Counted from the whole stretch's first letter, positions 3,659 through 16,522 are shown. The stretch is DNA of 63,369 nt, filler included, from Theionarchaea archaeon (GCA_018992565.1; 4 parts of 4 records of this genome joined end to end with filler, not necessarily neighbours in it); one strand, 5' to 3'. The notes: generated from the letters alone by a model not told the origin. Made by a program: numbers and translations.

Positions 3659-4672
3659 TCACACGCATGAAGCCACAAGTTCTTCAATACTCATCATCTT
3701 GTGGAATGAATTCCGTTTCATATGGTACAGGCAAAAGGGACAGGCTGTGACCAGGGTAACATCCGGAAGAGAATTCTTGAGCATTGTACGGCAGATAGAA
3801 TCAGCCACTTCTCTGAAGTTCAAAAGCATGCCCCCTCCTGCTCCGCAGCAGCTCTGAGATTCCTTCTCCGTGTAGGATGACAGAGAGCTGAGTATTCGCC
3901 GCGGCTGCGAGGTAATTGAATTTCTCAGGAGGTGGCACGGATCATGGTAGGTGGTGCAAAGAGGCTGAGGTTCTAATTCATCAAGGTAGGTGTTGAGTAT
4001 TTCTGATGTGTGCATGACTCTAATGTTGAAAGGGTACTCAAGAAAGTGGGAATAACAACCTGCGCATGATGTGATTAGAGTCTTTATCCCTTTGGTTTTA
4101 AAGTAGGTTATATTACGTTCCATTATCTCTTGGGCTTCTGCTAAGAATCCAGTTCTTGACAGAAGAGAGCCGCAGCACACATCATCAATAACTTGAAGGG
4201 GTAGCCTATCTTTGACGACCCTCATAAAGCTCTGGGCTATCTGAGGCTGCATCAGTGAAGTTGTGCACCCCGGAAAATACGCTACATCTGCTTCAGGATC
4301 AGAAGATAGTGCAAGCCAGGACTCTCTCTCGGACTGTGGCCTTGTATAAGGGTTGCCCATCTCACATGCTGATTGGACTGATTGACGAAGTGTATGGTTC
4401 TCAAGAGGATGTGCAGCTCTCCATGTCTTGACCGCTTGTGTGATCTTTGCATGGGAAGGGCAAACATCTTCACATCGTCCACACATGGTGCAGGTGTACA
4501 GTCGTTCAGTGACAGACTGTAAGTCCAGAAGTCCTTCTGCATATTTTCTCAAGAGTATGCTCTTAGCACGAGGCGACAACGCTTCACTATATGTCGCAGA
4601 GTACACAGCACACCCATCAAGGCAGTAACCACAGGAGCCGCATTCAAATATATCACACTGATGAGGGTTCAT
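3659..4672 (-). CDS. Fe-S/CCG-domain oxidoreductase (GlcF/HdrD-like)
   Basis: CGSCGYCLDGC and CTMCGRCEDVCP ferredoxin motifs; two CCG domains (FPGC, VCCGS, SCAGC; YHDPCH, SCCGAGGG, ACPFC). Confidence 0.9.
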   Translation of the reverse strand: MNPHQCDIFECGSCGYCLDGCAVYSATYSEALSPRAKSILLRKYAEGLLDLQSVTERLYTCTMCGRCEDVCPSHAKITQAVKTWRAAHPLENHTLRQSVQSACEMGNPYTRPQSERESWLALSSDPEADVAYFPGCTTSLMQPQIAQSFMRVVKDRLPLQVIDDVCCGSLLSRTGFLAEAQEIMERNITYFKTKGIKTLITSCAGCYSHFLEYPFNIRVMHTSEILNTYLDELEPQPLCTTYHDPCHLLRNSITSQPRRILSSLSSYTEKESQSCCGAGGGMLLNFREVADSICRTMLKNSLPDVTLVTACPFCLYHMKRNSFHKMMSIEELVASCV

Positions 4673-4676
4673 TTCA

Positions 4677-6029
4677 TCACCTTAACCCCAGCTTCCCCCT
4701 GTTCATAATGTGACACGGATCAAAGACGTCCTTTATGTCCTGCATAACCTTTCTCCTTGCAGGGTATCCACAAAGATAACCTACTTTATCGCCCCCCAAA
4801 GCGCTTATCCCTCCTCCATGTTCTAGAGTTATTTTGATAATCTCATCTTTTGCCACCTTTACTCTTTTTACTTCCTCTTCGTCCCTTTCATTTACCACCA
4901 TCCCCGGGAAGAGGACCAATGTGCGCCGGGAGGCCACATAGCCCCCCATGAACATTCTTACAGACAATTCGTCTGCCTTTTCCCAGCATCTGAGAGCAAC
5001 GTCAAAGACACAATCCACGGGTACGAAGGTGTCTTCAAAGGAGATCATTCCAACGCGATACACTTTCGGAAGAAATGAAGAAAGGTTTTTCCAGAGCCCC
5101 GCAGAAATGCCTCCAATGTTCAGGTGAGAGTTGTAGTGACGTACTATGGATTCCAGCGTACATTTCTCCTGTTCCCCAAACTGCTGGAATACCATCAAGA
5201 GATATCCTGAGGAATTTCTCTTGTTCCTGTCAATTGTGGCAGCAGGGTTTCCAAGAGTAACCTCCCTGACAAAGTCAAATGTTGTGGCATCATCATATAT
5301 AATGGTGTAGGGACAGAGATCTGTGAGAGCTACCTCCTGTACACAGGCCAATGTGTCCTCGAAACTCCCAAAAAAGGCTGAAACCACTGTTTGATTCTGC
5401 TTATTAATAGATGTGAGAAGAATGCTGGTTATGAATCCCAGTGTACCCTCAGACCCCACAAACAGCTCACAGAGGTTGTATCCTGGAGTGTATTCAGTCA
5501 CACTCCCCAGTGAGAACTCATCTCCATTTCCTGTTATCACCGTCATGTCCAGGACCTGCTGTTTTATTCTTCCATATTGGTACGATCCCAGCCCCACGCC
5601 GTTGGTAGCAACAAACCCACCAATGCTGGCGCCGGGGGAACTCCAGGGGATCACGGGGAGTTGTAACCCAGCTCGTGCCAGGGTTGTATCTATGTGGGAT
5701 ATACTGCATCCTGGCTGTACTCTCACGTAGTGTCTCGTTTTGTTCACTTCTTCAATTCTATTCATATGGGCAAAATCGACGATGATCCCGCCTTCCACAG
5801 GGACTGCTCCTCCAAAGGTACCAGTTCCCCTTCCTCGAGGTATGAGGTTCCATCCTTCCTTCTTGGCAGCCTCTACCAGGGATTTAACCTCCTTCTTGGT
5901 TTTGGGCTGGACAACAGCATCAGGCATTCCTTCCAGGCAAGGGACGGCATCTCTGGAATAACAGAAAAGATCAGCAGGCTCAAAAAACGCTCTCTCTTTG
6001 AAAATATCTCTCAATGTATGCTCCATCAT
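4677..6029 (-). CDS. FAD-binding oxidoreductase (GlcD/D-lactate dehydrogenase/VAO fold)
   Basis: PDAVVQP, PRGRGTG, SIGGFVATNG, GSEGTLG, KDVFDPCHIMNRGK; start set at the ATG overlapping the upstream stop (ATGA). Confidence 0.88.
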   Translation of the reverse strand: MMEHTLRDIFKERAFFEPADLFCYSRDAVPCLEGMPDAVVQPKTKKEVKSLVEAAKKEGWNLIPRGRGTGTFGGAVPVEGGIIVDFAHMNRIEEVNKTRHYVRVQPGCSISHIDTTLARAGLQLPVIPWSSPGASIGGFVATNGVGLGSYQYGRIKQQVLDMTVITGNGDEFSLGSVTEYTPGYNLCELFVGSEGTLGFITSILLTSINKQNQTVVSAFFGSFEDTLACVQEVALTDLCPYTIIYDDATTFDFVREVTLGNPAATIDRNKRNSSGYLLMVFQQFGEQEKCTLESIVRHYNSHLNIGGISAGLWKNLSSFLPKVYRVGMISFEDTFVPVDCVFDVALRCWEKADELSVRMFMGGYVASRRTLVLFPGMVVNERDEEEVKRVKVAKDEIIKITLEHGGGISALGGDKVGYLCGYPARRKVMQDIKDVFDPCHIMNRGKLGLR

Positions 6030-6940
6030 ATCACCAGGGTTCCATGGTCCACAACTACTGTCCTGTCTATTATGACTGTGGGTGCAGATATGACTCCATC
6101 CATGTGGATTCCTGCTCTGTGACATCCCCCAATAGTATGGTTGTCTCCCAGAGAGATGTGACAGGTTCCTTCTATCTTCTTGGCTTCAAAAACGGTATTG
6201 TACGTGGCTGCAGGATTCATACCCACAGCGCATTCAGCAATTTGCCTGCTCCCCGGATGGGCATTTAAGAGGGGTTCCAGGTTCTCTGGTCCTCCCTCAC
6301 AGGATACTACCTGTCCTTCACGTACATGGAAAGTGATAGGGTCTTTAAGAAACCCCAGACCAACCATGCCAACATCCACCACATAAGAGCCTTCAACACT
6401 CTCTTCCACTGGTGATATGAGCACTTCCCCCTCCGGGAGAGTTCCAAATGCACCCTGTCTTGTGTAGTCACCTGTAAGAGGCAGGGGGTGCCTCTCCTTG
6501 ATCGACATTTCAAGATGAAGTCCACCTGATTCAACAGTGACGTATTCTCCTCGTTCAAATATCTCCTGCAGGCACAGGCCTCGTTCCTCAAGGAGTTCAT
6601 AGTCTGTGTCAACAATAGTCTTCAGGGATTCTTCAGTGATCCCCGCCATTGAAATAAACCGGGCTCCCTTCTCACAGGCTTTTTTCCGTGCATCAGTAGG
6701 ACCCAACGAGAAGGTGGTGAGAGCCATAATAGCATCATATTCAGTGAACATATGAGATATCTGGGGCGAGGGCTCCTCCCCATTACAACGTGCTGGAGGT
6801 ATACACACCAGAGGAGAGGAAAGACCTTCTCCAAAGGGTTTTCCTATTCCAAGATGTGGGTAGTCGCAGACTACAAGTACATCCTCATCTGTCTGAAGAT
6901 TCAAGCATCTGTCGGCTATGAATCGAGCGACATCTTTCAT
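6026..6940 (-). CDS. M29/AmpS-like metallo-aminopeptidase family protein
   Basis: LPEGEV, IAECAVGMNP, EAKKIEGTCHISLGDN, GIHMDGVI motifs. Confidence 0.8.
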   Translation of the reverse strand: MKDVARFIADRCLNLQTDEDVLVVCDYPHLGIGKPFGEGLSSPLVCIPPARCNGEEPSPQISHMFTEYDAIMALTTFSLGPTDARKKACEKGARFISMAGITEESLKTIVDTDYELLEERGLCLQEIFERGEYVTVESGGLHLEMSIKERHPLPLTGDYTRQGAFGTLPEGEVLISPVEESVEGSYVVDVGMVGLGFLKDPITFHVREGQVVSCEGGPENLEPLLNAHPGSRQIAECAVGMNPAATYNTVFEAKKIEGTCHISLGDNHTIGGCHRAGIHMDGVISAPTVIIDRTVVVDHGTLVI

Positions 6941-6944
6941 CAAA

Positions 6945-8468
6945 TCACCTGCCAGTCCAGGAATAGCTGTGGGACGGAACTGGAACATCTGGATCTATAG
7001 GGATATCCACAACAGTGGTCCTCTCAGGCTCTGGCTCCAATTCCAGCAATTCCTCAAGGGTTTCAATTCTCACTCCTTCAGCCCCGAAGGACTCTGCCAG
7101 CCTGGCAAAGTCGGGAAGAGGTGAGAGATCGATTTCTGAAATCCTGTTGAAGCATGACAGCTGGCTCTGTCGAATCATGCCGAGATATCCATTGTTGAAA
7201 ATGCACACTGTCACAGCGAGTTGGTTCCTTACAAAGGTGACCAGTTCCTGACACATCATGAGAAAACTGCCGTCTCCTCCTATGTTTACCACAGGACTTG
7301 CCGGACAGGCTACTTTAGCTCCAAGAGCAGCAGGAAGCCCGAATCCCATGCAGCCCAGCCCTCCAGAGGTAATGAACCGAGATGGTCTCGAAATCCTCAG
7401 GTAGTTGGCAGCAAATAACTGATGTTGACCAGTATCTGTAATGAAAATGGAGTCTGGTGGGAACACTTTCCTCAGCGTTTTGAGTACGGCTACAGGACTG
7501 AGAAGTGGCCCTTCAGGTGTCATGACCTCGGATTCTGATTCTGATTCTTCCCATTGAGGTGTGTGAGGTCTCTCGGAAAGCAATGCCAGGAGTATAGGAA
7601 GCACTGTTCTCAAGTCCCCCTTCACCAGCATGGTATTCTCCAGAGCTGTTCCCACCCTGTCTTCCACATTGACACATACAATGTGTGCTCTCGGAGCAAA
7701 CTCTGAGACACTCCACACTGTCCTGTCAGAAAGCCTGGTTCCCAGGGCCAGGACAACATCGGCTCGCTGTACAATGTGGTTGGCATGCTGTGAACCATTG
7801 CTGCCAATCATCCCGCAAAACAGGGGATCACACTCAGGAAACCCACTCTTACCCATCAAGGTCGTCACCACAGGGCAGTTCAGCAGGTGACAGAGATCGT
7901 ACACCTTTTCTGAAACCTGTGAGCGCACAACTCCTCCACCAACTATGACGACTGGGAGCTGGGAATCCATAAGGAGGGTTGCTGTGGCACATATATCATT
8001 GTAAGGGATCCTAGGGGATGAGGGAAAGGTGTTCTCATCAAAGCCAGGAAGCCAGGCAGTCTGTCCAGTCTGAACATCGCGAGGGAAATCCAGGTGAACT
8101 GGCCCAGGAGGACTGCTGGTACTGATTCGTATCATTTTTTTCACCATGTATTCTACAAGCTTGGGAGTGGTTACCAGTGCAGAGCTCTTCACAATTGGGT
8201 CAAATACTGATGTTGTTTCCACTTCCTGAAAAGAATCAGTTCCTATCCTGGAAAGAGAAGTCTGTCCCGTAATTGCCAGCAGGGCTGAACGATCCTTATA
8301 TGCTGTCGCCAGTCCTGTAGTCAAATTAAGAGATCCTGGTCCGGAGGTGGCCATGGCCACAGCAATGTTCCCGCATGCTCTAAAAAACCCATCTGCCGCA
8401 TGGGCTGCTGCCTGTTCATGTCCCATGAGGTAGTGAGTCATTCCGGTGTCCAGGAAGAGATCATACAC
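6945..8468 (-). CDS. Thiamine-diphosphate enzyme, acetolactate synthase large subunit-like (5' end in gap)
   Basis: HEQAAAHAADG, ATSGPG, PGPVHLDFPRD, SGGLGCMGFGLPAALG, GDGSFLM...NNGYLGMIRQ. Confidence 0.9.
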   Translation of the reverse strand: MYDLFLDTGMTHYLMGHEQAAAHAADGFFRACGNIAVAMATSGPGSLNLTTGLATAYKDRSALLAITGQTSLSRIGTDSFQEVETTSVFDPIVKSSALVTTPKLVEYMVKKMIRISTSSPPGPVHLDFPRDVQTGQTAWLPGFDENTFPSSPRIPYNDICATATLLMDSQLPVVIVGGGVVRSQVSEKVYDLCHLLNCPVVTTLMGKSGFPECDPLFCGMIGSNGSQHANHIVQRADVVLALGTRLSDRTVWSVSEFAPRAHIVCVNVEDRVGTALENTMLVKGDLRTVLPILLALLSERPHTPQWEESESESEVMTPEGPLLSPVAVLKTLRKVFPPDSIFITDTGQHQLFAANYLRISRPSRFITSGGLGCMGFGLPAALGAKVACPASPVVNIGGDGSFLMMCQELVTFVRNQLAVTVCIFNNGYLGMIRQSQLSCFNRISEIDLSPLPDFARLAESFGAEGVRIETLEELLELEPEPERTTVVDIPIDPDVPVPSHSYSWTGR

Positions 8469-8568
8469 NNNNNNNNNNNNNNNNNNNNNNNNNNNNNNNN
8501 NNNNNNNNNNNNNNNNNNNNNNNNNNNNNNNNNNNNNNNNNNNNNNNNNNNNNNNNNNNNNNNNNNNN

Positions 8569-9539
8569 GTCACCCCCTCAACTGAAACCCGGATTCCTTT
8601 GGGTATCTCAAAGAGGAGAAAGGTGGTCACAGTGAATGTACCAATGGCAGCCAGGAGCACAGTCAAGTGAGCTCCTTCCAGATACTGGACTATCAGTGAG
8701 ATCTGGAGCATAATAGTACCCAAGCGGAACAGGCGCAATGTGGTGGTTGCATTGGCTGGGGTGGGATGCTGCAGAAGGAGCTGTGTATTGTACAGAGAAA
8801 GTATCACCACACAACCCATGATGGTGGCAAAGGTCAAAGTGAAGTTGGACACCCAAGCACTCCACACAACTCCTGCAATCCAGAAGAGAGAGGCTACATA
8901 TGTTGACCTTCTCATTCCCACCTGTACGGGGAGCGTCATAACGTGAGTCTTTTTATCTCCAGGAACATCACCCACAGAGGCCATGATGTTAATGGCTATA
9001 TGATACAGAAATACGCCCAGAGGAGCCCACCATGAAGTGATCCTTCCTGCAACTGCAGATTGTCCAATATAGATGCAGAGTAAGACACAGAAAGCAAAGG
9101 TTATGTGGCCCGAAATACCATTTCTCTTTGTAGTATATGAATATACATTTGACATGAGAATGGCAAAAAGGGTCAGACTGGGGCATACATAACTCCTGGT
9201 GGCAACAGACAGCGCTATTCCTGAAAGCGTCAGCAATCCCCCGAATGCCACTGATTCCCGCAGGGTGAATCGTCCTGAAGGGACAGCCCGGTAGGGTGTG
9301 TTAATGGTGTCCACGTCAAGATCAAATATGTCATTAAATACCTGACCTCCCGCCCACAGAAAAACAGGTATGAACATCCCGCAGAGCGCAGTGATATCAA
9401 TGCGCACTTCCTGAGTTGCCATTATCACACCAATCAGACCTGATGTGAAGGGCATACTCATATTGAAAATCCGTATAAACTCAAGAGCACCCCAGATCTT
9501 AGAGGTAGATCCTTTCTCCAGGGATTGCACGCTTCTCAT
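8569..9539 (-). CDS. UbiA-family prenyltransferase (DGGGP synthase-like; 3' end in gap)
   Basis: NDIFDLDVDTINTPYRAVPSG and GDVPGDKKTHVMTLPV motifs, multiple TM helices; ATG overlaps the upstream stop. Confidence 0.88.
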
Positions 9540-10843
9540 GAAGACCCCCTCTGTATTTGGTAAACGCATCTCTGAGCGGAATCTGCAGGAAGCTCCATTC
9601 CCGGCCCAGTTCCCTCTACCGTGTCTCCCACAAAGTAGAGATTCTCCAACGGTGAGGAAACAGGCACTTTATGCCTCCCGACCCATCCCACATGTTTTGC
9701 CAGTCCATCCACCACAGGAGTCTCAAACGAGTGCACCCATTTGATACAGGGGCCCGCTCCTGGGAAAGCCTCTTTGAGAAGGTCCACAGCATGGGACTCA
9801 GCGCTCCTCCCCGTATAGGGAACTGCTATGAGTACCAGTTGATTCCCTGGAGGTGCAACCTCAGAAGAACAGGTTGAAGGTGAAAAAAGTGCGCAGTGTT
9901 CTCCTGGCTGCCACATATCCGCATCTTCAGGAAGGAGAACCAGCGAGGGTATATTGACAAATGGTCTGGTGAGGCAGACATACACCTGTGTAGAAGGTCC
10001 CGTATGGTTTCCCTTCATGGCCTTCACTCTTTTTGAGAATTCAGAAGGAAATTCTGTAATATAATCCAGAATGGAGTACACAGGGGGGTTGAAAATGACA
10101 GTATCTGGAACGATTTCCTGCAGCTCTCCATCTTTCTCATATAACACTTTTGATACACGCTCACCGTCTACATCCATCTCTACCACTTCTGCTCCTGTGA
10201 TAACCTGACCTTTCAGAGACTCAATTCCCCGAACCAGAGAATCTGCTATCGTCCTGATACCACCAGCTGCAGGATATCCCAACCCCTGGCACATGGATGT
10301 GGCAATCTGCAGTACACGGAAGTACTCTCCCGCAGATGCTTTGTCTGCTTTTGCAGTGATGGCAAAATAGCTCGAAAGGTTGAAATGCTTGAGCAAGACG
10401 GGATCATCAGTCTTTTCCCTGGCCCATTCCAAGACTGTCATATCATCATAGGTATATGTCTCCTCATAGGGGATCTTCCTGATGTCTGCTGCGAATTTCA
10501 TGAGCACGGGACGTAGTTCAGGTGGAACGTGTCTAAACCCTACCACGGATTCAATAACCCCCTGTCTATACTGGCTCAGGGGAGGGTCCAGCTTCTTCAG
10601 GTTCACCGGCTGTCTCAACTGCTGAAGGATCTCCCCAACAGTGCCGCCAACATGCCCACTGCTGTAGTAAGATGCATGCCATCCGTAGTCAAGAAGACAT
10701 CCCTTCACTGGAAATGAAGTAGCCCTCCCTCCAACATACGTCTCTTTTTCGAGAACAAGAGGCTTCTCACCTGAGAGGGATAAGAGGGAGGCTGCACACA
10801 AGCCTCCAATTCCAGAACCAATCACAATGACACTCATAGTCAC
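9536..10843 (-). CDS. FAD-dependent oxidoreductase, phytoene desaturase (CrtI)-like
   Basis: VIVIGSGIGGL...LEKETYVGGR, YPAAGGI, SEVAPPG, LENLYFVGD. Confidence 0.85.
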   Translation of the reverse strand: MTMSVIVIGSGIGGLCAASLLSLSGEKPLVLEKETYVGGRATSFPVKGCLLDYGWHASYYSSGHVGGTVGEILQQLRQPVNLKKLDPPLSQYRQGVIESVVGFRHVPPELRPVLMKFAADIRKIPYEETYTYDDMTVLEWAREKTDDPVLLKHFNLSSYFAITAKADKASAGEYFRVLQIATSMCQGLGYPAAGGIRTIADSLVRGIESLKGQVITGAEVVEMDVDGERVSKVLYEKDGELQEIVPDTVIFNPPVYSILDYITEFPSEFSKRVKAMKGNHTGPSTQVYVCLTRPFVNIPSLVLLPEDADMWQPGEHCALFSPSTCSSEVAPPGNQLVLIAVPYTGRSAESHAVDLLKEAFPGAGPCIKWVHSFETPVVDGLAKHVGWVGRHKVPVSSPLENLYFVGDTVEGTGPGMELPADSAQRCVYQIQRGSS

Positions 10844-12075
10844 GGTCTCACTAGAACACAGTAGGGATCAGAGGCTTTGATATTCCCCCCTGATAGTCCC
10901 CAGGAGCGTCCTCTGCAACCGCCGCAGAAATCCCTGTACGTGCACTTCGCACAGAACCCATCGAAGTTCTTGCGATCTCTCATCTCCTTGAATTCAGGGC
11001 TGTTTATCCACAGATCTTCGAGGTCACCATGGAGGGCATCTCCTACCTCCAATGGATAGAAGGGGCATGGTTTCAGCATGCCATTGGCTGTGATCCCCGC
11101 ATACACCCTTCCTGCTGAACATCCACCGTGGAACTGTGACACCAAGTTGGCATTAAAAGATTTCCCGTTGTAGTAAAACAATGCCAGTTCTGGATCAGCA
11201 ATCCACAAGAGCAATTTGGGCGATATGTCCTCCAGATTCTTGGCATCTCCGTTGGCATCGATCTTTCCCTGTTCTATCAATTTTTCATGGGCAATTCGGG
11301 TAAACTGAGGTATCAGAGAGAATATAACAAACTTGCCTTCCTCTCTCCGATCGTATAGCCACCTGTTGAACTCGTCATATTCTTCCGCAGAAAGTGTTAG
11401 CTCCTCAAAGTTGTCAGCACCTGCACCCGCAGGCAAGAAGTTCAGCACATTGAACCCATTCAAAGGAATTCCCTCTGCCAGGGCGTACATGTCNNNNNNN
11501 NNNNNNNNNNNNNNNNNNNNNNNNNNNNNNNNNNNNNNNNNNNNNNNNNNNNNNNNNNNNNNNNNNNNNNNNNNNNNNNNNNNNNNNNNNNNNACATCCA
11601 TGTCTGCCAATTTGTCAATGATTGAAAAAGCTTCTTCCAGAGATATGTCTTCTATCCCTGAAGCAAAGACTTGGGAGGCGTAGCATTGCTTGCATGTTTT
11701 GATATTGCACTTTGAAGAAAAATCCCATACAATCTGGAACGGGGCTCCCAGGGTTGCAGGGGTAGTCACACCAAAAGTAGCCATACTCTTCAAGGTCAGC
11801 ACCAGTTTCTTGGGGTTTATTGGCAGTCTTTTCAGAAAATCTGTGAGCATCTGAGGAGTAATCACCGTTTCTGAGAGGGCTTTCATGAAATACTGCATAA
11901 ACTCCTGGACATCCTTCTGGCAGGTTTCACATTGTGTCTGCTGGGTCAATGCAAATCGAAGCGCTGTATATATTTTTTTTGTCTTGCAGCTGGGACAGGT
12001 CTCAAACATCTTCTTTAAGGATGCATTAGCATCCGGATCTCTCACCAAAAGATTCAGTTCAGACATCTTCATCAT
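10840..12075 (-). CDS. Radical SAM/SPASM-domain protein (internal gap)
   Basis: APFQIVWDFSSKCNIKTCKQCYA; SPASM GCSAGR...G.LKPCP...CAKCTYRDFCGGCRGRS...DPYC; N-terminal CPSC/CETC. Confidence 0.9.
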   Translation of the reverse strand: MMKMSELNLLVRDPDANASLKKMFETCPSCKTKKIYTALRFALTQQTQCETCQKDVQEFMQYFMKALSETVITPQMLTDFLKRLPINPKKLVLTLKSMATFGVTTPATLGAPFQIVWDFSSKCNIKTCKQCYASQVFASGIEDISLEEAFSIIDKLADMDXXXXXXXXXXXXXXXXXXXXXXXXXXXXXXXXXXDMYALAEGIPLNGFNVLNFLPAGAGADNFEELTLSAEEYDEFNRWLYDRREEGKFVIFSLIPQFTRIAHEKLIEQGKIDANGDAKNLEDISPKLLLWIADPELALFYYNGKSFNANLVSQFHGGCSAGRVYAGITANGMLKPCPFYPLEVGDALHGDLEDLWINSPEFKEMRDRKNFDGFCAKCTYRDFCGGCRGRSWGLSGGNIKASDPYCVLVRP

Positions 12076-12407
12076 CCTCTACTTTTCTTAATTGAAATTC
12101 TACTTATAAGCGTTACGCATGTAATATAAAAAGACATTAAACAATATATTAGTTTCCTCAGGTATCTAAAGGAAGCAATTTCCATTTATTTCACAAACTG
12201 AAAAGTCATGGTAATTGGCCAGTCTATGAGAAAAAAGGAACTTATTATTTGCAACTAGTCATTTTCTATATCTTTTACTCAAAATTGTAATAAAAAACAA
12301 TAGAAAAATTGAAAGATAATTTGATGCTGGAACATGTTTTAGAGTTCAGACGTGTCTCCTGAACCTGTGCATACCCGGTTCCTACTGGATGAGCCTTGAT
12401 AACCGCG

Positions 12408-12943
12408 CTAGCACTTCTTGATTCTGGATCCAGCTCCCACAATACTGTCCACAAGAGTAATCCCCTCAAGCCTGCAACCTTCATCAACAATGCTCCTCTG
12501 TAATATGCAGTCTATGACAGCAACGTCATCGAGGACAACTGATTCCTCAAGCCTCGACCTTTCGATGGTGCATCTCTTCCCCACATACGATTCGTGACCA
12601 TATTCCATATTCGCCTGTATATATGACTTTCTGTCTCCAATATCATGCCAGGCTTCTTCAAATGGAAATCCGTCAACATTCTCGCGTTCAAGCACCCATT
12701 CAATGAAATAACCGGGGGCATCCTTACCCTTTCCAGGCAGTCTCCCGTTCATTCCTTCATATGTCAAGAATTCAGAGAAGAGAGGGAGTACCCTTTCCGG
12801 GAAGAGGTAGACTCCTGTGCTGACCAATGTTGAACGGGGGTTCTGAGGTTTTTCCTGGAATGTGAGAACCCTTCCCTCCTTAAGTTCCGCCACCCCATAC
12901 TTTCCCTTTACATCTGAGTCTTTCATATCATGAAGCGCAATCA
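12408..12943 (-). CDS. NDP-sugar synthase/nucleotidyltransferase, C-terminal part (5' in gap)
   Basis: YGVAEL...FQEKPQNPRSTLVSTGVYLF, WHDIG, left-handed beta-helix tail. Confidence 0.88.
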
Positions 12944-13043
12944 NNNNNNNNNNNNNNNNNNNNNNNNNNNNNNNNNNNNNNNNNNNNNNNNNNNNNNNNN
13001 NNNNNNNNNNNNNNNNNNNNNNNNNNNNNNNNNNNNNNNNNNN

Positions 13044-13785
13044 CTCCATTGATGAGATCCACCACTTCATTGAGGCTGCACGAGACACCTGTCCCCAGAT
13101 TGAAAACATCATGTTCAACGTGAGAATCAAATGCTCTCAAGATTCCCTTTACAATGTCGTGGACATGGGTGAAATCCCGCTTCTGGGTCCCATCTCCATA
13201 GATAATGGGCGGATTTCCTTCCCTCATAGCCCACAGAAACTGGGAAACCAGATTGGCGAATTGCCCTTTCGCTTCTTCCCGAGGACCATATACTGAAAAA
13301 AACCGGAGTCCTACTGTCTCCGTCTTGTACCAGTCGTAGTGCAGATCGGCTAGTCGCTCCATGAAATATCGGGCCTCTGAGTAGTAATCCCTCACCAGTA
13401 TGGGCATATCTTCCCTCCAGGGAAGCGGATTCCCGTTATATATGGAGGATGTGGAAGCCCACACCATTCTCACGTCCAGGGTCCGGGCAAGTGCCAGCAT
13501 GTTCAGAAAATCAGTCACTGCCTTTCCAACCAAGGAAGGGTCCTTCCTGTACATAGGGGAAGACGAATATATGCCAAGATGGACTATCCCATCGATGTGT
13601 GATACTTCCTCTGCAGTCAATGCTCCACAGTCTCTTCTCAGGAAATGGACATCCATCCCCCGGATGTTGTCCAGAGTCCCTGTATGCAGGTTGTCCACTA
13701 CAAGAACCTCATATCCCAGGGATTTCAACGTCTCTACCAGGTGGCTGCCTATGAAGCCACAACCTCCTGTCACCAAGACTCTCAT
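13044..13785 (-). CDS. NAD-dependent epimerase/dehydratase (3' in gap)
   Basis: VLVTGGCGFIGSH, LRFFSVYGPRE, GDGTQKRDFTHVHD, FNLGTG. Confidence 0.92.
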
Positions 13786-13797
13786 TCTATCACCTTT

Positions 13798-14781
13798 TCA
13801 CCTTTTGCTTTCCCTTTTCTCGAAGAGTTCCGTGTTATCATGATTGCAGTGTTTCCTCTCCAGTGCCTCAACCCGAGCATAATACAATATTTCCTCCTGT
13901 ATTTTCCTCTGCCTTCCCAGCATGTCAGCAATCAAGGCCAGAATTATGCATAAGAACCCAACAATCAACAAGACTCCGCTCAGGGTCACCAGAGATCTGT
14001 AAGGCGAGACCTGAGATGTTAATACCCATCGAATAAACAGAATAGATCCAGAGACGGCTCCTGAAATGAAAATCGCTGATCCCAGCATTCCAAAAATCTT
14101 GAAAGGATACAAGTCTATCATGGTCCTCACAATAATGAGCAGAGCGCTTACTCCATATGCCAAAGGGTTCTTGACAACCCGTGATTTTCTGGCTTCATCA
14201 TAGGCTACCCTGACGGGAATTTCCTTCATGCGCATTTTCTTGGAAACTAGGTCCAGAAATGTTTCCTGGGTATACGTAAAATCCCCGAATAATGTAATCC
14301 TGAGGGCAGCCTCTCTTGAAAGAGCTCTGAATCCGCACTGGGTATCAGTAAATGAAGAATGCGTCAGCACATTGACCAGCCATGTGAAGAGCGTATTTCC
14401 CATCCGCTTCACCCTGGGCATTGCAGGGTTCTCCAGCAAGAATCGGGAACCTGTAACAAAATCTGCTTCATCGCACAGGATGGGCGCAAGTAATCGAGGG
14501 ATATCATCTGCATCGAATTGCCCATCTGCATCAATACTCACCAGAATATCAGCCCCAAGTTCCAGACCTCTCTCCATCCCTGTTTTCACAGCAGCCCCTA
14601 CACCTCTATTCTCAGGATGGGAAACCACAACTGCGCCTGCCTTTTCTGCATACTGACCTGTCTGATCGTGAGACCCATCATCTATGACCACCACTGTATC
14701 AACATGGGCCTTAACATCATTCACGGCACGTTCTATGGTCTTCTCTTCATTGTATGCTGGAATAAGGGCAATAATATTCAT
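13798..14781 (-). CDS. Glycosyltransferase family 2 (polyprenol-P-sugar synthase-like)
   Basis: LIPAYNEE, VIDDGSHD, DADGQ, DTQCGFRA, C-terminal TM helices. Confidence 0.93.
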   Translation of the reverse strand: MNIIALIPAYNEEKTIERAVNDVKAHVDTVVVIDDGSHDQTGQYAEKAGAVVVSHPENRGVGAAVKTGMERGLELGADILVSIDADGQFDADDIPRLLAPILCDEADFVTGSRFLLENPAMPRVKRMGNTLFTWLVNVLTHSSFTDTQCGFRALSREAALRITLFGDFTYTQETFLDLVSKKMRMKEIPVRVAYDEARKSRVVKNPLAYGVSALLIIVRTMIDLYPFKIFGMLGSAIFISGAVSGSILFIRWVLTSQVSPYRSLVTLSGVLLIVGFLCIILALIADMLGRQRKIQEEILYYARVEALERKHCNHDNTELFEKRESKR

Positions 14782-14899
14782 TTCATCGTGTCCTGAGAGA
14801 AGAACATATTTAAGGTTTTCCTCACCCTCTCTTGTGAGAGAATCAATCTCTTCTGAGGCAATGATAAGTTCACAAAAGATTTAAATTGGTGTGGCCTGA

Positions 14900-16522
14900 G
14901 TGCCTCTTATGCTTGGCGAAGTGCTCTCTTGGCTGAAAGGATTCATGTTCTGGGGAGTAGTGGTGATGTGGCCGGGGTTTCTCCTCCAGCGTGTCCTCCT
15001 CAAGAACAAGAGAGCCCTGGATATTCTTGTTTATAGCACTGGATTCGGACTTGCCTCTATGGTCATTATGTGTCCCCTGCTGGACGCACTGTGGGAGATA
15101 TCAATTGTCTCCATAGGGGCTGCATGTGGCATTCTTTCTGGAATCCTCATAGCCGTAGCTTTCTATCATGATCCTCCTGTCATTACCTTGAAGGTGTCTG
15201 GCAGAGTGCGCATAACCAGGGTACATATTGTGATTCTACTGTTGGTTTGCTATGCGTTTCTGCTTCGTTCTTCTACGCTCTTTGATCCTCTGCCCAGAGG
15301 ACAGGATGCATGGACGCATCTCTCTTTTATTTCATATATTTACCAATATAAAGCTCTTCCCGAGGTTCTTCCCTGGATTGAGCCTGCTGTACCCGTTACA
15401 CTGGACTTATATCCTCCTGGTGTTCACTGCGTGGGCGCTCTCTTGTCTCAGGCAGCAGGCGAAATATCCTTTAGTCTCCTGAAGGCAGTGTTCATAGGCA
15501 TGGGGACAGCGACAATTCTCTCAGTATATGTGGGAGTGCGAAACTTGTTTGACGAGAAAACAGCTCTCCTGTCAGCAAGCGTCACAGCAGTGTTTATACC
15601 TCACATGATAATGACTTCGGAAATCACTGCCCAATCTCTTGCTATTTTCATGGTCCCCTTGATTCTGTACGTATTCTACATGAAAAAGTGGGTAGCTGCA
15701 GGCATACTGCTGGGAGCCGTCATTCTCATGCACCATCTTTCTGCTTTTGCCGCAGTGCTTTCTGTGGGAGCTGTAGCTCTGACGCTGAGTTCCAAAAAAC
15801 TTGAGTATCTGGGATATGCTCTGGGTACTGGTGGGACAGCACTGGCTGTGTCTGCTCCGTGGTGGATACATGTTCCCTTTAGAATGTCCTCCATTGATGC
15901 TGGAGGCTCTTCTTCTTCCTATGTGGGGACAGGGTTCTTCTCTCCGTATTTAAGCGTGATTTCTCCTTTGACTATAGTATTCTGCATGATAGGAGTGTAC
16001 ATCGCTCTGACTCACATCAGCAAAAAAAAGACATTCATATTCACATGGGCGCTCGTTCTGTTCATCGCGTCTCAGCCTGTATTTCCCATTGACTTTTTGC
16101 CCTGGAGATTTCCTGCATTCTTCATTTTACCAGGATCTGTGCTGGCCAGCCTTGGAATACTTAGTATATGCTCCCGGATAAGGACTCGATGGTGCTATGC
16201 CCTCTTGTTTGTTGCATTAATGGCATATCCTCAGCAATTTTGGCCTGGCACTGACAATGACAATCTACAGGCTACCCAGTGGATTGACGATTCCACTCTG
16301 GATCCCTACTTCTACGTATATGGGAGAAATTACACGTACATCTACCCTCTTTCATATCATAGAATGCATATTATCACTGATTTCGATGCTCCGTTTTCCT
16401 TTGGTCTTAGCCCTGCGTACTTCTATGATGATGCAGACTGGGTCCCTCATACACTTGAGCGGTTTGGGCAGTTCGATAGGATCTACTCATGTGGCAGCAT
16501 CATCATCCATAGAATAGAGTGA
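14900..16522 (+). CDS. Polytopic membrane protein, probable GT-C glycosyltransferase
   Basis: Many TM helices, GQDAWTH loop and YPPGVH motif typical of GT-C; divergent from the GT2 gene. Confidence 0.6.
   Translation: MPLMLGEVLSWLKGFMFWGVVVMWPGFLLQRVLLKNKRALDILVYSTGFGLASMVIMCPLLDALWEISIVSIGAACGILSGILIAVAFYHDPPVITLKVSGRVRITRVHIVILLLVCYAFLLRSSTLFDPLPRGQDAWTHLSFISYIYQYKALPEVLPWIEPAVPVTLDLYPPGVHCVGALLSQAAGEISFSLLKAVFIGMGTATILSVYVGVRNLFDEKTALLSASVTAVFIPHMIMTSEITAQSLAIFMVPLILYVFYMKKWVAAGILLGAVILMHHLSAFAAVLSVGAVALTLSSKKLEYLGYALGTGGTALAVSAPWWIHVPFRMSSIDAGGSSSSYVGTGFFSPYLSVISPLTIVFCMIGVYIALTHISKKKTFIFTWALVLFIASQPVFPIDFLPWRFPAFFILPGSVLASLGILSICSRIRTRWCYALLFVALMAYPQQFWPGTDNDNLQATQWIDDSTLDPYFYVYGRNYTYIYPLSYHRMHIITDFDAPFSFGLSPAYFYDDADWVPHTLERFGQFDRIYSCGSIIIHRIE

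Follow-up and report, generated by a model that had tools for sequence, protein, structure and literature searches.

A minus-strand operon of eight genes in the genome of an uncultured Theionarchaea archaeon from sediment (GCA_018992565.1) appears to be a translationally coupled, self-contained biosynthetic unit that probably builds a small head group and joins it to an isoprenoid chain. The window, by which we mean the whole stretch analyzed (63,369 nucleotides, four records joined end to end with filler), shows seven of the genes; the eighth is hidden by a scaffold gap (Table 1). In order of transcription they code for a radical SAM/SPASM enzyme, a CrtI-like flavoprotein, a UbiA-family prenyltransferase, a PF04199 "cyclase," a thiamine diphosphate (ThDP) enzyme, an M29/NicX-like metalloprotein, a GlcD-like flavoenzyme, and a CCG iron-sulfur protein. 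We tentatively favor, at a probability of about 0.4, the reading that the operon is an accessory pathway making an O-prenylated metabolite or lipid, the head group of which derives from 2-oxo acids. All eight families are known, and in the accessible parts of the literature no paper reports their combination, the isolated UbiA and CrtI-like clades, or the restricted accessory distribution described here; the original prediction that no cluster of this composition has been described agrees with the literature searched, to the extent that it was accessible.

An eight-gene operon with conserved order

Scanning metagenome contigs with an alignment of UbiA orthologs returned five loci, four of which carry more than UbiA alone. 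The full eight-gene set is present in the same order in L016 and L019, while L017 and L018 (partial) carry what their length allows, and the overlapping or ≤4-nt junctions are kept in the window and in all four. Proteins of the window and of these loci share 57 to 85% amino acid identity. Their surroundings are unrelated: the window has sugar-nucleotide and glycosyltransferase genes plus an ABC transporter, L016 has BacA, IS200, and a second radical SAM-UbiA module, L017 has TldD/PmbA, and L019 has MoeA and DUF11. The shared order at this degree of divergence, between different flanks, argues that the operon is not a mis-join, and the unrelated surroundings of the same eight genes indicate that they travel as a unit. 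The same longest-contig sizes (e.g., 43609 and 10687) recur in the match lists of UbiA, the CrtI-like protein, and the radical SAM enzyme, consistent with co-location. Genome-contig searches seeded with UbiA and with alignments of the UbiA and M29 proteins yielded no ortholog, the one match being a 33% identical Lysinibacillus M29-like gene lacking synteny.

Within the window, open reading frame (ORF) calls, Pfam matches, and direct reading of the junctions bear out the seven closely spaced minus-strand genes and domains that had been predicted. Adjacent genes overlap by GTGA at 10840-10843 and by ATGA at 9536-9539 and 6026-6029, gaps of 4 nt separate the ThDP and M29-like genes and the GlcD-like and CCG genes, and TGA is the stop codon in all seven. 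The count of seven genes holds for what is visible and falls short of the true number, which is eight: in the ungapped L016, L017, and L019 loci, a PF04199 gene of 239 to 240 amino acids (aa) related to KynB (3e-30) lies between the UbiA and ThDP genes and overlaps UbiA by 8 to 14 nt, and in the window it is concealed by the gap at 8469-8568. An 874-aa fusion ORF at 6945-9569 is an artifact in which UbiA and the ThDP enzyme are read through the 100 N.

Table 1. Features of the operon and its immediate surroundings, in coordinates of the window
Feature	Coordinates	Strand	Evidence and remarks
Radical SAM/SPASM enzyme	10840-12075	minus	Pfam SPASM 6.9e-08; true length 484 aa; radical SAM core cut by N gap 11494-11593
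CrtI/amine-oxidase-family FAD protein, 433-435 aa	9536-10843	minus	Pfam Amino_oxidase 2e-14, NAD_binding_8 1.9e-13
UbiA-family prenyltransferase, 327 aa	8569-9539	minus	Pfam UbiA 1.6e-28; final four codons in N gap
Scaffold gap, 100 N	8469-8568	minus	~0.9 kb hidden: end of UbiA, whole PF04199 gene, and ~57 codons of the ThDP gene
ThDP enzyme derived from acetohydroxyacid synthase (AHAS)	6945-8468	minus	TPP_enzyme_C/M/N 3.9e-43, 6e-31, 1.2e-21; N terminus in gap; orthologs 550-566 aa
M29/NicX-family metalloprotein, 304 aa	6026-6940	minus	Peptidase_M29 1.6e-14
GlcD/D-lactate-dehydrogenase-family FAD enzyme, 450 aa	4677-6029	minus	FAD_binding_4 1.3e-35, FAD-oxidase_C 3.5e-16
HdrD/TfrB/GlcF-like Fe-S protein	3659-4672	minus	CCG 5e-25 (2 stretches), Fer4_8 1.7e-11
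AT-rich noncoding leader before the first gene, two TATA-like boxes	12076-12407	minus	GC 0.36; boxes read by eye
Winged-helix-like protein, 139 aa	3198-3617	plus	Convergent with operon, 41 nt from stop of last gene; no Pfam match of its own
ABC ATPase and MacB/FtsX permease	887-2857	minus	Pfam; possible exporter, weak link

The gap within the radical SAM gene is bridged by contigs from public runs with 328 letters, and L016 has ~330 nt at this place; because it is bridged at the expected size, the gene is taken to be intact. No contig of four public runs spans the gap behind UbiA, although their ends enter it by 740 to 778 letters from the UbiA side and by 107 from the ThDP side. By eye, on the minus strand, these loose ends complete UbiA as ..TAHE-stop, giving the same 327 aa as protein P0001 of the protein collection, open an ATG that overlaps UbiA by 8 nt as in L019, and join the ThDP fragment in frame through FGIPGGAISP. 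With the order kept in metagenome loci and one N gap bridged, the prediction of a single conserved and tightly coupled operon, rather than an assembly artifact, is upheld.

The region before the first gene is AT-rich, as predicted. When the leaders of the window, L016, L017, and L019 were compared, all four proved AT-rich and no conserved ORF was found in them; by eye, each has a TTTTTATAT(T/C)A element and, ~15 to 20 nt on, a second TTATA-type element 5' of the start codon.

Phylogenetic distribution

The source genome is a metagenome-assembled genome (MAG) of the Theionarchaea/Methanofastidiosia, 88% complete, and the distribution of the operon proteins was evaluated against 133 genomes of the class of the window, one per species. 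UbiA (E≤1e-40), the GlcD-like enzyme (E≤1e-60), and UbiA2, the prenyltransferase of a second module described below (E≤1e-25), each have orthologs in just one of the 133, the source genome itself, and no CrtI-like ortholog was found in 40 relatives searched. The other two families tested match more broadly at lower identity: the ThDP enzyme in 27 of 133 genomes at E≤1e-90 (best non-self identity 42%, and none of the three in its own family), and the cyclase in 96 of 133 at E≤1e-5 (best 35 to 40% identity). None of the proteins tested has an ortholog in two congeners that are 91% and 84% complete or in a genome of the same family (91%), and the operon is thus accessory rather than core.

UbiA, CrtI-like, and radical SAM orthologs from elsewhere are attributed to MAGs of Theionarchaea or Candidatus Methanofastidiosia, one of them Theionarchaea archaeon DG-70-1. 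In our reading the operon is an accessory trait carried only by a small Theionarchaea/Methanofastidiosia clade. Six studies of marine sediment, mangrove, and soil have metagenomes with near-identical DNA, though many of these runs may be the source samples. Base composition gives no signal of horizontal acquisition, with a GC content of 0.484 in the operon and 0.467 in the genome.

The prenyltransferase and its partner enzymes

UbiA is the only operon protein with membrane segments predicted by hydropathy scan, six hydrophobic segments being predicted in an ortholog. Residues N69, D70, D73, D77, D191, and D195, which make up the NDxxDxxxD and DxxxD motifs, are invariant in 22 orthologs. A profile of these orthologs run against 1.84e9 representative proteins retrieves a single cluster at E≤1e-30 (616 bits), with the next match at 119 bits, and 85 of the 100 next-best matches are of the digeranylgeranylglyceryl phosphate (DGGGP) synthase type; the nearest solved structure is the M. 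jannaschii DGGGP synthase (95 bits). Judged by sequence, the family therefore appears to be an isolated cluster from the DGGGP synthase/chlorophyll synthase side of the superfamily, and as members of that kin prenylate oxygen, O-prenylation is the likely chemistry here as well.

The ThDP enzyme has three TPP domains and, aligned to AHAS, retains the GDGS...NN (GDG-x(25)-NN) motif together with HEQ, which carries the cofactor-activating Glu. At the acceptor site, RLSDR stands in place of the RFDDR-type motif, and Ser replaces the Trp found in the QWED context; E. coli AHAS I has Gln at the latter position, and we draw no conclusion from these residues. The enzyme looks to be a diverged AHAS that has neither small subunit nor pathway and would act as a free-standing carboligase.

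Encoded between these two is the cyclase, which belongs to the kynurenine-formamidase/isatin-hydrolase fold family by Pfam (3e-30) and by its PDB neighbors. Its motif DHTSTHVD..SH (H-x-x-T-H-x-D..H), invariant in three orthologs, presumably corresponds to the KynB metal site; the score on the KynB model TIGR03035 is 58.4 bits against a cut-off of 223.05, and the gene was not found elsewhere in the source genome. The Pfam match of the M29-like protein covers only profile positions 207 to 348 of 406, no NCBIfam family matches it, and its PDB matches are weak (AmpS, 3.3e-4; NicX, 3.1e-3); neighbors in the ESM Atlas carry PF26233 NicX, which we treat as a lead only. Both proteins are predicted to be of metal-dependent hydrolase types. 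A paralog of the M29-like gene lies amid peptide and amino acid genes in the source genome.

The GlcD-like protein has glycolate oxidase (9qgz) and D-lactate dehydrogenase (8jdb) as its nearest PDB entries, and the protein encoded after it, with two [4Fe-4S] ferredoxin motifs and two CCG domains, belongs to the HdrD/TfrB domain class. The CCG protein scores 169 bits on TfrB (NF004898; cut-off 385) and 53.2 on GlcF (NF008434; cut-off 333), and no membrane segment is predicted in its L016 ortholog by hydropathy scan. A separate GlcE gene is not in the operon. D-2-hydroxy-acid dehydrogenases that hand their electrons to an Fe-S/CCG protein are usually built in this way. Two more GlcD-like and CCG/HdrD-like pairs are encoded in the source genome (C147:3321-6009 and C145:12-2488), ~25 to 27% identical to the operon pair.

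The radical SAM enzyme is seen at full length in L016 (Radical_SAM 6.1e-24, SPASM 1.5e-06), and an intact 484-aa protein is present in the protein collection (P0202). Its N-terminal domain of ~115 aa with four Cys is clade specific and found only in 18 ortholog clusters, and an insertion of ~60 aa precedes the SPASM domain. The cluster motif CNIKTCKQC (Cx4Cx2C, encoded at ~11700-11730) is kept in the window and three orthologs, and its three Cys are invariant in 19 of 19 aligned rows, with the GGEPL motif also intact; paralogs have the canonical Cx3Cx2C instead. Cx4Cx2C is mentioned for other radical SAM enzymes in the parts of the literature that were accessible. The best-scoring family is AhbD (TIGR04545), at 202.2 bits against a cut-off of 500. 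An AlphaFold model is mediocre (predicted local distance difference test [pLDDT] 64.6), with an all-helical N-terminal domain, and its best Foldseek matches are generic SPASM enzymes (SkfB, CteB, SuiB, anSME, and PqqE). Searching the source genome (2.8 Mb) by tblastn with three SPASM enzymes gives more than 40 paralog matches, several of which are in tandem arrays of three or four (e.g., C119:11036-15026, C110:19971-24418, C4, C140, C133, and C24).

The CrtI-like family has 16 ortholog clusters at 62 to 100% identity, after which identity falls to 25%. The solved structures nearest to it, 3ka7 and 3nrn (PF1083), are both without assigned function, and on the carotenoid desaturase model TIGR02734 it scores 56 bits (cut-off 238.1), over the N-terminal 50 residues only. 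The original prediction that this enzyme changes isoprenoid saturation is not sustained, family membership being what speaks for it.

Housekeeping functions

Ordinary functions for the same genes, as an adjacent DGGGP synthase, IlvB, D-lactate dehydrogenase/GlcF, and carotenoid desaturase, were evaluated using curated NCBIfam equivalog cut-offs, with negatives in the 88%-complete genome read as not found. These are the best-scoring named families, but every score lies under its curated cut-off. UbiA (P0001) reaches 116.7 bits on the DGGGP synthase model NF009521 (cut-off 296), 122.7 on NF009523 (269), and 81.4 on NF009522 (353), and two paralogs encoded elsewhere in the source genome, on C19 and C10, are better candidates for this role at 257.1 and 252.8 bits on NF009521. 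UbiA proteins that are 24 to 33% identical, of the DGGGP synthase-like kind, are present in 39 of 41 relatives searched, whereas operon orthologs were not found in the 132 other class genomes. The ThDP enzyme approaches the IlvB model TIGR00118 most closely, with 440.4 bits for the truncated window protein and 488 for the full-length L016 ortholog, against a cut-off of 538.35, and the GlcD-like protein has 180.2 bits on TIGR00387 (cut-off 567.9).

Searches for partner genes were likewise negative. In the source genome, neither ilvN (control positive in 13 of 14 genomes) nor ilvD (14 of 14) was found, the best ilvC match has 28.9 bits against a cut-off of 226.15 (control positive in 14 of 14), and phytoene/squalene synthase SQS_PSY (PF00494) was not found (control positive in 8 of 14). 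With sub-cut-off scores, partners not found, and two better DGGGP synthase candidates elsewhere, we reject the housekeeping roles and give them next to no credence. The original prediction that ordinary branched-chain amino acid or carotenoid synthesis does not explain the operon thus stands, and by score its enzymes do not sort with true DGGGP synthase, true IlvB, or true D-lactate dehydrogenase.

Proposed pathway and alternatives

From the families, motifs, synteny, and distribution observed, we infer a route whose steps, their order, the O-prenylation, and the nature of the head group are all set out conditionally here. Working with its HdrD/TfrB-like Fe-S partner, the GlcD-like flavoenzyme would convert a D-2-hydroxy acid to a 2-oxo acid or back, and from this 2-oxo acid the AHAS-derived ThDP enzyme would form a C-C bond, yielding an acyloin or keto-polyol head group. 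The KynB-like cyclase and the M29/NicX-like protein may then act on an amide or ring by opening, closing, or deprotecting it, and the DGGGP synthase-derived UbiA would couple the head group to a polyprenyl diphosphate at the membrane, most likely via oxygen. The CrtI-family flavoprotein and the AhbD/NirJ-like radical SAM enzyme could tailor the product, which would be a membrane-anchored prenyl metabolite or an unusual lipid, and not a housekeeping lipid, an amino acid, or a carotenoid.

Several observations weigh against this pathway. No operon protein reaches a curated NCBIfam cut-off, with scores that are far below, and none of the enzymes has a characterized close relative, so the substrates are guesses; PDB sequence searches turned up distant relatives only, and the ESM Atlas nothing finer than names of families. 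The operon is without a polyprenyl synthase, a head-group activating enzyme, or a methyltransferase. The CrtI-like protein could use an amine instead of an isoprenoid; the structural neighbors of the radical SAM enzyme are peptide- or protein-modifying SPASM enzymes (from a model with a pLDDT of only 64.6); and homologs of the M29-like protein in a Thermococcales genome (G049) lie amid peptide and amide utilization genes, where catabolism would fit. An RNA library contributes a single 190-nt contig, on the CrtI/UbiA junction, which is no evidence of expression.

It is conceivable that the operon joins two unconnected activities, with the radical SAM, CrtI-like, and UbiA enzymes tailoring isoprenoid lipids and the cyclase, ThDP, M29-like, GlcD-like, and CCG proteins forming an unrelated, co-transcribed module for 2-hydroxy/2-oxo-acid or amide catabolism. 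GlcD-like and CCG pairs do exist at the two other sites in the source genome (C147 and C145), M29-like paralogs sit with amino acid and peptide genes, and the second radical SAM/SPASM-UbiA2 pair occurs without the other five genes. However, the eight-gene order and overlapping junctions are kept in every sufficiently long locus while the flanks change, the UbiA and cyclase genes at the boundary of the two halves overlap by 8 to 14 nt, and the tested proteins of both halves share the same phyletic restriction, making this composite unlikely, if still worth some weight. We regard as a little less probable again a new class of archaeal ether lipid with a non-glycerol backbone or head group, in which the AHAS-derived carboligase would build this part de novo from 2-oxo acids (e.g., a C4/C5 keto-diol from pyruvate or 2-oxobutyrate and a C2 aldehyde), the DGGGP synthase-derived UbiA proteins would etherify it, and the radical SAM-UbiA2 pair would add a second chain. 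Synthesis of butanetriol/pentanetriol tetraethers (BDGT/PDGT) was considered since AHAS chemistry could give C4/C5 backbones, and it was set low: Methanomassiliicoccus, which is reportedly a BDGT/PDGT producer, is not among the named holders of the UbiA family. BDGTs are treated in PMC11868695.

The original prediction offered two products, a new membrane redox carrier or a non-standard ether lipid, of which the latter may still be right. The redox carrier would be prenylated and resemble a quinone, phenazine, or pyrazine, with the HdrD-like/GlcD-like pair as its dedicated reductase or oxidase. The presence of UbiA, two flavoenzymes, and an HdrD/TfrB-like CCG protein in one operon is what recommends it, and a ThDP enzyme is also paired with a UbiA protein in classical menaquinone synthesis (MenD and MenA). 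Methanophenazine likewise needs O-prenylation, and according to the accessible part of PMC6315138 its pathway was still unidentified in 2018. A core respiratory carrier would be expected in close relatives, however, and the operon was not found in the 132 other class genomes, two congeners among them (40 relatives searched for the CrtI-like protein), which weakens this proposal. Moreover, NrfD (PF03916) and HdrE/NarI-type (PF02665) subunits, the two classes searched for, were not found in the 88%-complete source genome, and none of the methyltransferases or ring-forming enzymes used in known quinone routes is seen. With its support thus reduced, a redox carrier seems about as improbable as the new ether lipid.

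The radical SAM enzyme raises the further alternative of a peptide-derived product, resembling a ribosomally synthesized and post-translationally modified peptide (RiPP) or a lipidated peptide, where the SPASM enzyme would cross-link a precursor, the M29-like and KynB-like hydrolases would trim it, UbiA would lipidate it, and the neighboring ABC/FtsX proteins would export it. The Foldseek neighbors SkfB, CteB, SuiB, anSME, and PqqE, the more than 40 radical SAM/SPASM paralog matches in the genome (several tandem), the ABC/FtsX genes adjoining both the operon and the second module, and TldD/PmbA flanking L017 all fit such a scheme. A precursor is not apparent, as the flanks of the window, L016, L017, L019, and C87 share no conserved small ORF but a 136- to 139-aa winged helix-turn-helix-like gene. 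The low-confidence model makes the N-terminal domain of this enzyme all helical and not an obvious RiPP recognition element; ThDP and GlcD enzymes are not usual members of RiPP pathways; and peptide prenylation of the UbiA type is not known. We consider a peptide product very unlikely.

Relationship to known systems

The preferred reading, an O-prenylated product with a 2-oxo acid-derived head group, has partial counterparts in several known systems. UbiA-centered pathways make membrane lipids, quinones, hemes, and chlorophylls across life. DGGGP synthase is nearest to the operon UbiA in both profiles and solved structures, and both Asp-rich motifs are kept; the operon protein differs in its scores (~120 bits against cut-offs of 269 to 353), in being ~45 residues longer, in forming an isolated clade, and in sitting among head-group-building enzymes foreign to core lipid synthesis. 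The classical menaquinone pathway similarly combines a ThDP enzyme that forms a C-C bond with a UbiA protein in one route to a prenylated redox molecule, but the operon ThDP enzyme is AHAS-like and not MenD-like, its UbiA is of the DGGGP synthase/ChlG type and not an aromatic C-prenyltransferase, and chorismate-using, CoA-ligase, naphthoate-synthase, and methyltransferase genes are lacking from it.

The cyanobacterial scy/ebo genes for scytonemin code for ScyA, an AHAS-like acyloin synthase, the cyclase ScyC, and the UbiA-like protein EboC, and thus share with the operon the combination of these three kinds of protein. The operon UbiA has 77.7 bits on the EboC model, though short of the cut-off of 250; further scy or ebo genes are lacking, the operon belongs to an anaerobic archaeon, and the PF04199 cyclase presumably differs from the ScyC family. 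The last two genes resemble GlcDEF glycolate oxidase or D-lactate dehydrogenase with an HdrD-like partner in having an FAD_binding_4/FAD-oxidase_C enzyme followed by a protein with two [4Fe-4S] and two CCG units, but differ in score (GlcD, 180 versus 567.9 bits; GlcF, 53 versus 333), in the lack of GlcE, and in being one of three such pairs in the genome. AhbD/NirJ, which act in heme and heme d1 synthesis, are the best-scoring family for the radical SAM enzyme, which departs from them in score (202 versus 500 bits), in the four-Cys N-terminal domain, Cx4Cx2C motif, and ~60-aa insertion, and in having no tetrapyrrole genes adjacent.

A UbiA branch without a close relative among 1.84 billion representatives is thus tied into one operon with seven further enzymes, a set that no paper describes, as far as the accessible literature goes. 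If the product is a new ether lipid, the operon could be the source of an orphan biomarker; if it is a new prenylated cofactor, it bears on how electrons move in cytochrome-free archaea. At ~9.3 kb, the operon is a compact and conserved target for heterologous expression, and the proposals made here are testable by expression and lipidomics.

Flanking genes and a second radical SAM-UbiA module

The 139-aa winged-helix-like protein encoded beyond the end of the operon is 43% identical to one at L016:17901-18311 and 41% identical to one at C87:6651-7061 in the source genome, and the C87 copy matches HTH_24 (5.3e-05). Genes of this family (136 to 139 aa) are the only small ORFs conserved among the flanks compared, and the protein is possibly a linked regulator of the operon. 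The ABC ATPase and FtsX pair of the window is absent from the L016 locus.

A second radical SAM/SPASM and UbiA2 pair is present at C87:2531-7061 in the source genome and at L016:16703-20577. At C87, genes for DUF3108-like and FtsX-like proteins, an ABC ATPase, and the 136-aa winged helix-turn-helix protein come after the pair, and in L016 it is convergent with, and right behind, the eight-gene operon. UbiA and UbiA2 have no significant similarity to each other and so are not a recent duplication. The operon and the radical SAM-UbiA2 module may belong to one larger locus.

Upstream of the operon, at 12408-16522, are cell-surface glycan genes coding for a nucleotidyl transferase, an NAD epimerase (cut by the N gap at 12944-13043), a GT2 glycosyltransferase, and a weakly PMT_2-like membrane protein. 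In L016, an IS200-like (Y1_Tnp) transposase gene at L016:6289-6840 lies directly upstream of the operon, which fits a changing genomic context. A PAP2 lipid phosphatase is encoded at 3-761 of the window, and L016 has BacA in the corresponding flank. Large secreted-type proteins of the Peptidase_C25 (gingipain) family with Big_7 domains are encoded at C36:40005-42365 in the source genome and at L016:2727-5072.

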